Assembly: GCA_034112285.1 (NCBI GenBank)
Contig: JAWUVP010000016.1
Coordinates: 14,403 to 78,402, forward strand
Reading direction: 5' to 3'
DNA length: 64,000 nucleotides
Source: Gammaproteobacteria bacterium
GTDB taxonomy: Bacteria; Pseudomonadota; Gammaproteobacteria; JABDGN01
Part shown: positions 14,340 through 16,935 of the stretch, piece by piece
Position numbering within the stretch: the stretch's first letter is position 1
How the letters are laid out: each line of letters opens with the position of its first letter
Made by a program: the position numbers and the translations under genes
Notes under the pieces: generated by a model
What the model saw: the letters and a program-made list of their open reading frames with translations, nothing else
Database searches by the model: none
Told to the model about the DNA's origin: nothing

Positions 14340-15494
14340 CTATAAAGCTCTATCCATGATAGTACTATCGTAGCACAGGGGCCTTTCTTCTACAAAGGGA
14401 TCCACGCCGGACTCACCGCCATAAACCTCACCCCAAAGACTCTGCCTAGAAAAATTTCCCGGGTAATCGTATAACAAGGTTACCGCGGGTAAATATTCAT
14501 CATAGCTATGTGTACCGCCTAAAGATGATAGCTTATATTGTTTTGCTATAGTGTTATTTAAAAAAGGTAGGGTAAAGTGAATTCTTGGCTTGCTTGCTTG
14601 AACACATTCGTAAAAATTTTTTTTCACGTCATCAAACCAAATTTTGAAATTAAGTTTTTTATATTCATTATGCGTTCTCTCGGTCATTCGACTGCCCAGT
14701 CGCAACCAGATGGTTTTCACTTGCAAGTTGTGTTTTAGCAACGTTTTAAAAACCAGGGTTGAAACGCTCAGCATTTCAACCCTCGCACTGGTTAACTCAA
14801 TAATAACCCGGTGATGTAAATGTATCGAGCCAATACTCTCAGAATAATTTCTCAAGGTTAGTCCCGCTAAATCTTGTATCAAGCCAATGCCAAACTCAAT
14901 TATTGGGTGACGCTGTAGTTGCTGGTAATGTTGTTCGTTAAGCAGTGCATACTGTGTATCTTTAATATCTGTACTAATATAAATACAATTCAAACCTAGC
15001 AATATGACTTGTTTGTATACGCTTAGACTTTTTGCGAAATCATGCTGAACCTTCACCCCCACAAAACGCACAATCACACGCAGCCCGGTGAAATACGTAA
15101 GAAAAGCAGTAACGGCTTTGCTTTGAAGCAAAGGTAATGTTTCCAAAGACAATATGGATTGAGCATCAAGTAAGGTGGTATACGGAAACAACCCTGGAAT
15201 TATTTTGTAAGGCTGTATTACCTGGCCTGATTCGGCCCCGTAGAATGCGATCATTTTAACGTTGTATGAATTCAGGCTTTCTACTAAAACACGCTTGAAT
15301 AATGCTTGCAGAGTCGTTTTGGCTTCAATTAAAAAATAAAGCGCTATGGGGGTTTTATTTATTTTTGAGATAATCCTATCGGCGTCTCGCCAAGCTTCAT
15401 AGGTGTAGAGTTCCCGCTCCACTTCATAACGTATTTTAGTAAACACATTCAACTGGCCGGAAGGCAACAGTGAAACAAATATTTTTCTCATCAA
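14340..15494 (-). CDS. hypothetical protein, paralog A of a tandem pair (no recognisable domain)
   Basis: 384-aa ORF. Shares motifs with the adjacent 433-aa ORF: YKxIPGLF, ALYFLxxA, xAFYGAxxxQ, LGLNCxY, HxIIEFGxG, TxWLRL, DEYLxAVT. AT-rich. Confidence 0.6.
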   Translation of the reverse strand: MMRKIFVSLLPSGQLNVFTKIRYEVERELYTYEAWRDADRIISKINKTPIALYFLIEAKTTLQALFKRVLVESLNSYNVKMIAFYGAESGQVIQPYKIIPGLFPYTTLLDAQSILSLETLPLLQSKAVTAFLTYFTGLRVIVRFVGVKVQHDFAKSLSVYKQVILLGLNCIYISTDIKDTQYALLNEQHYQQLQRHPIIEFGIGLIQDLAGLTLRNYSESIGSIHLHHRVIIELTSARVEMLSVSTLVFKTLLKHNLQVKTIWLRLGSRMTERTHNEYKKLNFKIWFDDVKKNFYECVQASKPRIHFTLPFLNNTIAKQYKLSSLGGTHSYDEYLPAVTLLYDYPGNFSRQSLWGEVYGGESGVDPFVEERPLCYDSTIMDRAL

Positions 15495-15633
15495 TTTTTC
15501 TAGGAATTATCTTGTCGCAACATTAACATAGCGTTTATAAATTAACAACGCCCGTATTTAATGCATGCCAAGTACATAAAAAAAATTTATTCGCTATAAG
15601 TATTGCGTGAAATTTTCAATTGATTGTTATAGG

Positions 15634-16935
15634 CTATAAATCACTGTTGCCAATTCCATTAAAATTACCGTCAAAGGTACTGTCATCACTAGCCCAGAAA
15701 AATTTGCGCGCCTGTTCTGCATTAACAGAATCAAAAGGGTCGACCACTTTACACGTCGGATATCTATCTCGAAACAATAAAGCCTTCGGCTTTCCCGGAT
15801 CATTCGTATGAGTTACAGCCGATAAATATTCATCAAAAACAAGATCCGGTTCGTAACGCTCATCATCATTTTTGCGGCGATAACGAAAGACTTCTAAATA
15901 CCTTTCACCCAACGCTAAAGAAATATAAGGAGGCGTAAGGCACATACGGATCAAAGAAGAGTTTATCTTGACTACAGACGACTTTAGCTCCACTAAAGTA
16001 CTCTCAGAACAAAGTTTCTTAAAACGTTTGTTCGCCATGAAATCTATTTTAGCATTCAACCTTAGCCAAACAGTATGTACTGGTGAGCCCTTAGCCAACA
16101 ATATTTTAAACAAACGCACATATTTATGTAAATCGAGCGCCATCGATAGCATACTGTTTTCTGTGCAAAAAAAGGGAAATTCAAGAATTAGAACACCACC
16201 CAACAAATTGACTATAGTCCCTTCGATACTTTTAGCATAGGCCTCAAACTTTGGGTTCTTAAAATGCTTACTTTCTATTACCGGTCCGAATCCAAATTCA
16301 ATTATTTTATGATCCCACTGCTGTAGAGTCTTGTAGTCATTTTCATCAAATATCCCTGCAGGTGTTTCCTTACTTATAAATACCTTATAAACACAGTTGA
16401 GACCCAACCTTAATGCTGAACGCCTCGCACCTAAATCTTGAATGAGTTTCTGGGTAACAATAACCCCTAAAAAACGCAGTATCAATTCACTATGAAAGAA
16501 CTTAAACAAAAGCATGATAGTAGCATCCGTCAATAAAGGTAAATCTGCAATATTTAAAATTTCGGTTGACTCAAAATGAAGCGACTTTTCAAACAAACCT
16601 GGAATAGTTTTGTATGGCACTAGCGCATATAGGCTGCCTAGCATTTCGTCAGCCCCTCCACACTCTATTTCTTGGATTGCAGCACCATAAAAAGCCAGTA
16701 AAATTACGTTAAATTTAAACCATTCTCCGCTTTGTAACAACTCAGCCAATCCCACTTGGTCTATATTCGCGCCCAGTAAAAAATAAAGCCCCAGAGGTTC
16801 GCGCATTATTTTGGCTTTAGCCATTGACTCCAGTGACCATGGCTCATAGTCAACCTTAGATCCAGGCATTGTCGTTATCCGAGTAAATATTTTGATTTCA
16901 CCCCCGACGGCTTTTGCTATAAACAATTTTTTCAT
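15634..16935 (-). CDS. hypothetical protein, paralog B of a tandem pair (no recognisable domain)
   Basis: 433-aa ORF, collinear with paralog A. Separated from it by its own AT-rich promoter-like spacer. AT-rich. Confidence 0.6.
   Translation of the reverse strand: MKKLFIAKAVGGEIKIFTRITTMPGSKVDYEPWSLESMAKAKIMREPLGLYFLLGANIDQVGLAELLQSGEWFKFNVILLAFYGAAIQEIECGGADEMLGSLYALVPYKTIPGLFEKSLHFESTEILNIADLPLLTDATIMLLFKFFHSELILRFLGVIVTQKLIQDLGARRSALRLGLNCVYKVFISKETPAGIFDENDYKTLQQWDHKIIEFGFGPVIESKHFKNPKFEAYAKSIEGTIVNLLGGVLILEFPFFCTENSMLSMALDLHKYVRLFKILLAKGSPVHTVWLRLNAKIDFMANKRFKKLCSESTLVELKSSVVKINSSLIRMCLTPPYISLALGERYLEVFRYRRKNDDERYEPDLVFDEYLSAVTHTNDPGKPKALLFRDRYPTCKVVDPFDSVNAEQARKFFWASDDSTFDGNFNGIGNSDL

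Follow-up and report, generated by a model that had tools for sequence, protein, structure and literature searches.

The locus studied here raises a simple question, namely what two long, adjacent and AT-rich genes with no recognisable domains might be. The genes, which we call A and B, lie on the minus strand of a 64,000-nucleotide stretch of contig JAWUVP010000016.1 from a gammaproteobacterium (this whole stretch is referred to below as the window, and all positions and strands are those of the window unless another sequence is named). An original prediction, made by reading the sequence alone, proposed that they could be horizontally acquired secreted effectors or an uncharacterised enzyme family. 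Our analysis points to a resident, fast-evolving pair of ORFan genes, a description in which we have high confidence, and more tentatively to α/β-repeat proteins that carry a charged stripe.

Sequence relationship of A and B

Gene B (15634..16935, minus strand) is the upstream member of the tandem pair. Its open reading frame (ORF) encodes a soluble protein of 433 residues (~49 kDa, pI 7.0), and the ATG is preceded at 8 nt by an AAGGTG Shine-Dalgarno sequence. The downstream member, gene A (14340..15491, minus strand), encodes a soluble protein of ~44 kDa and pI 9.1, with 383 residues counted from the ATG at 15491. An alternative TTG start at 15494 would give 384 residues. This was the length originally given for the product of A, and both ORFs were found where they had been placed; the ATG is, however, more probably the start, and is the one used by gene callers on every public contig.

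Alignment of A with B by BLASTP gave 29% identity and 47% positives over ~400 collinear residues (E 5e-38). In agreement with the original prediction, each of seven shared motifs (YK.IPGLF, (A/G)LYFL, (I/L)AFYGA, LGLNC.Y, H.IIEFG.G, T.WLRL and DEYL.AVT) was found in both proteins, and, judged by a similarity that is far beyond chance, A and B are true paralogs. No signal peptide or transmembrane segment was predicted in either protein. The C-terminal tails of both are polar and acidic, and that of B is disordered and rich in Ser, Asp, Asn and Gly.

Distribution of the family

Scans of Pfam, NCBIfam, PADLOC and PHROGs returned no significant match for A or B, the PADLOC scan giving a single insignificant local match (E 0.0056). 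Thus neither protein has a recognisable domain, as had been noted, and no hidden Markov model (HMM) of a known family matched with confidence. A word-indexed search of 5.8 billion clusters recovered only A, B and a third family member, B', and when 1.84 billion protein representatives were scanned exhaustively with a HMMER profile, again only these three were returned. Family-pattern scans with tblastn confirmation found no relatives in GTDB species genomes or JGI metagenome contigs, tblastn found none in phage and plasmid collections, and no additional paralog emerged when every six-frame ORF of the window and of ~90 fetched loci was searched with an HMM. PDB sequence searches, made with the profile and with each protein, produced chance matches only (SspA, E 0.7; SIV protease, E 0.9). 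With the phyletic distribution checked in this way, the earlier suggestion of an uncharacterised family can be put more strongly: there is no homolog outside one population in any database scanned, and on these searches the A/B/B' family is a lineage-restricted ORFan, found in one metagenomic population.

A few local similarities were considered and rejected. Matches to Acb1, "RNA ligase" and MTase_II do not reach threshold, extend over fewer than 30 residues and are without catalytic histidines. The one that could have made A a 2H phosphoesterase (Acb1/LigT-like) involves residues 320-346 and also falls below threshold (Pfam Acb1, E 0.01, 16 bits against a cut-off of 27; phrog_755, E 0.003). 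Whereas 2H phosphoesterases have two conserved H-x-T/S motifs, this region of A reads THSYDEYLPAVT, with no histidine in such an arrangement, and A, B and B' all lack a conserved H-x-T/S there.

The pair resembles the bacterial ORFans described in E. coli (PMC3514957, PMC13012023) in having no homologs beyond its lineage and a narrow distribution, in being AT-richer than the rest of the genome, and in combining elevated nonsynonymous divergence with purifying selection. Unlike typical ORFans, A and B are much longer (383-433 residues), they form an old tandem duplicate (29% identity) accompanied by a third, deeply divergent form, and a phage or integrative-element context was not found.

Predicted fold and conserved residues

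We ran AlphaFold2 on an alignment of the three family sequences. The same order of elements is predicted in A and B, with a three-stranded N-terminal β-meander followed by eight strand-helix units. In B the strands are predicted at residues ~47, 76, 151, 175, 210, 245, 288 and 330, followed by short helices and a disordered tail (402-433). In the only usable model, that of B (predicted TM-score (pTM) 0.73), the units are stacked as an open horseshoe resembling those of ribonuclease inhibitor (RI) and F-box leucine-rich repeat (LRR) proteins.

Conservation is concentrated in the predicted strands, which are 70% identical between B and B' and 44% identical between B and A, compared to 46-51% and 24-29%, respectively, for helices and coil. 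Positions invariant in all three proteins occur in strands more often than elsewhere (odds ratio 2.8, p 1.7e-4), and an invariant polar residue is present in all but one of the eight strands (N76, R154, N180/C181, E213, E252, R292 and R330 in B numbering). Four strands of all three proteins share the pattern hh[R/E]h (ILRF, IIEF, ILEF and WLRL), with a fifth in B and B' only and a small residue after the motif; the pattern, noticed post hoc, is enriched over shuffled sequences with P 0.007-0.07. In our reading, the invariant residues of the model would form a stripe or pocket of conserved polar character on a parallel sheet, which would suit either a charged ladder on the face of a solenoid or the interior of a barrel.

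Our preferred explanation is that A and B are resident, fast-evolving tandem duplicates of the ORFan family whose products are soluble and probably cytoplasmic, each consisting of an N-terminal three-stranded β-meander, eight β-strand/α-helix units and a flexible polar/acidic tail. The parallel β-strands would form the conserved core while helices and loops diverge freely, and invariant residues on adjacent strands would make up one continuous polar or charged stripe. This putative functional surface could be where both paralogs bind a shared partner or ligand. We infer the fold class, the charged-stripe binding site and the cytoplasmic location, and we put the probability of an ORFan pair of α/β-repeat proteins with this fold and mechanism at roughly 0.4.

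Several results weigh against this explanation. The model of B is of low confidence, with a predicted local distance difference test (pLDDT) score of 62.7 from an alignment of depth 3 and scores of 38-56 for the other four models, and the model of A is poor (pLDDT 43) and unusable as a fold. A Foldseek search of the PDB gave nothing significant (best E 5e-3, TM-score < 0.3), no Pfam LRR family was matched at E <= 1, and an hhalign self-comparison detected as internal repeat only a 15-column match (E 0.7). Canonical LRRs are shorter and more regular than the β-α units of A and B, which span 24-43 residues. Both faces of the long strands are hydrophobic, as would be expected of a barrel or a covered sheet more than of an exposed concave face, and the gene neighbourhood indicates no binding partner.

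The nearest structural neighbours of the low-confidence B model are the Legionella proteins LegL7 (PDB 3goz) and LegL1, F-box LRR proteins and NLRs, with amoeba giant-virus F-box/LRR proteins lower down the BFVD list. RI-like, cysteine-containing LRR proteins (F-box, GALA and LegL proteins, for example L. pneumophila LegL7) are only ~10% identical to the family, and Foldseek TM-scores stay below 0.3. These proteins are made of tandem 20-30-residue repeats (LxxLxLxxN/CxL), whereas A and B show neither an LRR profile nor a significant self-repeat. Furthermore, the supposed exposed strand face of A and B is conserved and partly hydrophobic, unlike that of RI-like LRR proteins, and their β-meander and C-terminal extension are without counterpart in that group. 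The conserved stripe is also the opposite of the hypervariable concave face of diversifying LRR receptors.

A serious competitor, though we consider it unlikely, is that A and B are uncharacterised enzymes with a TIM-like (βα)8 barrel. The invariant polar residues, together with loop residues K109, H209 and D368/E369, would then form an active site in the barrel interior or at its C-terminal mouth, and A might act in a pathway with the adjacent SDR oxidoreductase. TIM-barrel enzymes, for which weak matches were seen to class I tagatose-bisphosphate aldolase, triosephosphate isomerase, radical-SAM and enolase-type barrels, resemble A and B in their eight β-α units over ~300 residues (predicted for A and B), in invariant polar residues on or just after strands and in Gly-rich loops after strands (EFGFG). 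However, neither a closed barrel nor similarity to a known barrel superfamily was found for A and B. The alternatives for the fold and those for the role of the proteins, discussed below, are not mutually exclusive.

Base composition and the question of import

A and B were said to be more AT-rich than the flanking SDR and PEBP genes, and this is the case: their GC contents are 0.393 and 0.387, compared to 0.524 for the SDR gene and 0.472 for the PEBP gene. Both lie ~2 standard deviations (SD) below the mean of the 34 other genes of the window (0.451 +/- 0.029), and the A-B region, with a GC content of 0.38, is the lowest-GC 2.6-kb stretch among 95 sliding windows. Their fit to the codon usage of the window is also low, by 1.6-1.8 SD, but GC at third codon positions (GC3) is within range and the dinucleotide signature of the region is ordinary (delta* 70, rank 54 of 95). 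Rfam and tRNA scans of the window were empty, with no tRNA in it, and no border direct repeats, integrase or transposase were found flanking the pair. ORFans are low in GC as a general rule (PMC3514957), and low GC alone is thus no proof of recent import; most E. coli ORFans are inferred to have been imported (PMC13012023). With low GC set against an ordinary GC3 and dinucleotide signature, and with no tRNA, integrase, transposase or flanking repeat, horizontal acquisition of the pair is not borne out.

Among related loci, the genes closest to those of the window were a MoxR gene 71-72% identical with other neighbours and a PEBP gene 42% identical; the arrangement upstream of MoxR was unmatched in 160 such loci (MoxR at most 72% identical). 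The sole mobile-element traces observed near the window are IS3-type transposase remnants (rve and HTH_Tnp_1 fragments) beside HTH_3 and DUF2971 genes, at 17650-18788 of locus L087. They lie ~6 kb past the left end of the window and ~20 kb from A and B.

These results bear directly on the suggestion that A and B are horizontally acquired, translocated effectors. In its fullest form, they would, like the LegL proteins of Legionella and the GALA proteins of Ralstonia, imitate LRR scaffolds of the eukaryotic RI/F-box type, and would reach a host cell by type III, IV or VI secretion, for which the disordered polar/acidic C-terminal tails would serve as signal. The structural neighbours of the B model, from LegL7 and LegL1 to F-box LRR proteins, NLRs and the giant-virus proteins, would agree with this, as would the GC minimum at A-B and the disordered tail of B. 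B alleles are also hyper-divergent, as is often seen in host-interaction genes, and relatives at 82-85% RpoB identity contain insertion sequence (IS) elements and have their ribosomal operons rearranged, as could be the case in host-restricted organisms. However, there is no secretion-system gene in the ~70 kb inspected (the window and ~6 kb beyond its left end), no signal peptide or transmembrane segment, and no homology to any known effector. RpoB places the organism with environmental sulfur-oxidiser-like Gammaproteobacteria and not with Legionellales, and its lineage is not known to have Dot/Icm. The dinucleotide signature is native and island borders are missing, the β-strand surface residues are conserved and not diversified, and the C-terminal "signal" is a compositional impression, at most suggestive. 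No positive evidence was thus obtained for secreted effectors, the only hint being LegL7 as neighbour of a low-confidence model, and we regard this explanation as improbable.

Selection and a divergent form of B

A and B are intact in four other assemblies (two from JGI and two from Logan/SRA), which are 99.75% identical to the window over 6.5 kb. Each of these differs from the window by one or two single-nucleotide polymorphisms (SNPs) over A and B together, of which none or one is in B. The third family member, B', is 54% identical to B at the amino-acid level and lies on a 1.5-kb contig (L003) of JGI 3300041950, one of the same metagenomes; it runs off the contig end and the database protein P0002 is therefore N-terminally truncated. 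Comparison of B with B' by the Nei-Gojobori method gave nonsynonymous (dN) and synonymous (dS) divergences of 0.35 and 0.93, with dN/dS of 0.38, and the proportion of nonsynonymous differences (pN) was below that of synonymous differences (pS) in every 60-codon window. Such a dN/dS indicates real genes, and because the genes are also intact in other assemblies and their conservation follows the predicted secondary structure, the ORFs appear to be translated and under constraint. On this comparative evidence, A and B are genuine protein-coding genes under purifying selection.

At the DNA level, B of the window and its L003 counterpart differ by ~32% (pS 0.53), whereas the difference is ~4% from ~70 nt downstream of the B stop codon through the putative promoter region of A and the first 54 codons of A. 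The sharp break in divergence near the B stop codon is seen on one short contig. L003 is not a chimera with the main strain, since the residual ~4% differences remain in the DNA adjoining B'. The divergence of B and B', as sampled by this contig, could reflect either two ancient alleles of B, or replacement by recombination, or a differentially retained third paralog.

A bolder combination of these observations would be a structurally new α/β-repeat family, neither canonical LRR nor TIM barrel, with a charged R/E ladder on the sheet as its recognition surface, in which B is kept by the wild population as two ancient alleles (54% identity) within ~96-100%-identical flanks, the host lineage being one with no cultured relatives. 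This would amount to balanced polymorphism such as occurs at host-interaction or phage-defence loci, and we view it as a long shot.

More doubtful still is a variable conflict cassette, for example of a phage-defence or immunity type, with B as deeply divergent alleles under frequency-dependent selection and A as their conserved partner. The two-gene architecture, the orphan status and low GC typical of defence cargo would fit, and B and B' from the same metagenome differ at 46% of amino acids (dS ~0.93) next to a spacer and A start that differ by ~4%. Set against this, PADLOC gave nothing beyond its insignificant match (E 0.0056), no nuclease, NTPase or other effector domain is present, and the neighbourhood is one of housekeeping genes (pho regulon, Bat/MoxR operon) with no defence island; dN/dS is below 1 in every window and B' is known from a single 1.5-kb contig.

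Finally, the idea of spurious or decaying ORFs without function, which could draw on the lack of homologs, the low GC and the absence of a clear Shine-Dalgarno sequence before A, is effectively refuted by two ORFs of ~400 codons that keep collinear 29% identity, by the dN/dS of 0.38, by intact copies of A and B in five independent assemblies and by conservation that follows predicted secondary structure.

Spacers, transcription and neighbouring genes

On a single strand, the gene order is phoB-phoR-(59 bp)-PEBP-(51 bp)-B-(142 bp)-A-(9 bp)-SDR. The B-A intergenic spacer (15492..15633, minus strand; GC 0.29) measures 142 bp from the ATG of A and 139 bp from the TTG, so that the AT-rich 139-bp spacer described originally has the right length if the TTG is taken as the start. 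The spacer between the PEBP/YbhB-family gene and B (16936..16986, minus strand) is 51 bp long and is also AT-rich (GC 0.24). Each gene had been credited with its own promoter-like region. This was not supported, as a scan with the sigma-70 consensus left both spacers without a site and gave as many sites over the region as are expected from shuffled sequence. No terminator-like site was detected in the PEBP-B or B-A spacer by the promoter/terminator scan, and B may therefore be transcribed by read-through from phoB-phoR-PEBP. The TAG stop of A and the ribosome-binding site (AGGAG) of the SDR gene overlap, with the SDR ATG 9 nt further on, and A is probably co-transcribed with this downstream gene.

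Comparison with the divergent L003 strain shows that the ~70 bp upstream of A are strongly conserved: the A-proximal part of the spacer (~15492-15563) is ~94% identical (5 differences in ~80 nt), and a variable patch lies in the B-proximal part. Within the conserved stretch is a direct repeat, TGTTAAT-N12-TGTTAAT (15522-15547, minus strand), which occurs once in the window against 0.04 expected for a pattern picked post hoc, and which may be a candidate operator. Inside A itself, at 14755-14783 (minus strand), a hairpin with a 13-bp stem (6 GC pairs) is followed by GGTTTTTAAA and is scored as an intrinsic terminator, here midway through the coding sequence (codons for RVEMLSVSTLVFK).

No Pho box was found near A or B. 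The sole plausible one in the window is a Pho box-like GTGTCACACCTTTGTCAT at 21953-21970 (plus strand), 44 bp upstream of pstS. The histidine kinase beside phoB (17781-18593, minus strand) has just 270 residues, with HisKA and HATPase_c domains and no reported Pfam domain in the first ~40 residues, and could be a PhoR-like kinase that is truncated and soluble. Almost all of the SNPs that separate the four other assemblies from the window are clustered in two short patches, at 18228-18267 in phoR and 18839-18950 in phoB. They are mostly synonymous, with one change R159S, and their clustering suggests short recombination tracts and not evenly spread mutation.

Genome context

The window contains rpoBC, the str, S10 and spc ribosomal operons, secY, rpoA, pstSCAB-phoBR and a MoxR-DUF58-VWA-BatD operon. 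Its RpoB is 85% identical to a few metagenomic sequences and ~73% identical to those of Thiohalomonadaceae, Thiohalophilus, Ca. Tenderia, Granulosicoccaceae and other Gammaproteobacteria, and its EF-G is a singleton in 90% clustering. By these marker sequences, the host belongs to a gammaproteobacterial lineage that is uncultured and has no close relatives among those sampled.

A second tandem pair of paralogs without Pfam matches is located at 53322-54110 and 54270-55070 (both plus strand). Their products (262 and 266 residues) are 62% identical (E 4e-117), and both have signal peptides, are Cys-rich and contain an internal duplication (GFWF...YNNSQLP.GLHCLP twice). Orphan genes have thus been duplicated in tandem more than once in this genome. 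Together with a 1325-residue right-handed β-helix (NosD/Beta_helix) protein, this pair makes up a segment (49272-55070, plus strand) on the opposite strand to its neighbours, lying between rpoC (55175-59410, minus strand) and rpsG/fusA (45780-48374, minus strand). In two relatives with 82-85% RpoB identity (L169 and L170), rpoC is followed instead by transposases, an ars module or a Vut_1 gene, and in one of them rpsL-rpsG-fusA-tuf has moved upstream of secE-nusG, which indicates that the region around the core operons has been rearranged in the lineage. A further ORF with no Pfam match, of 470 residues (24482-25894, plus strand), has a GC content of 0.389, as low as those of A and B. The gene called at this position has 380 residues in contig L001 and 424 in L002, and thus varies between strains.

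Implications

The finding is real but ordinary in kind and opens no long-standing question, and the context of A and B implies no phenotype, partner or pathway. The case cautions against labelling AT-rich orphans as effectors without evidence of a secretion system, and the practical value of the two proteins is as a structural-genomics target. If our explanation is correct, A and B would be a clean case of a long, structured and duplicated ORFan family under selection with natural allelic hyper-divergence, useful for studying the origins of orphan genes and the rise of α/β-repeat scaffolds.

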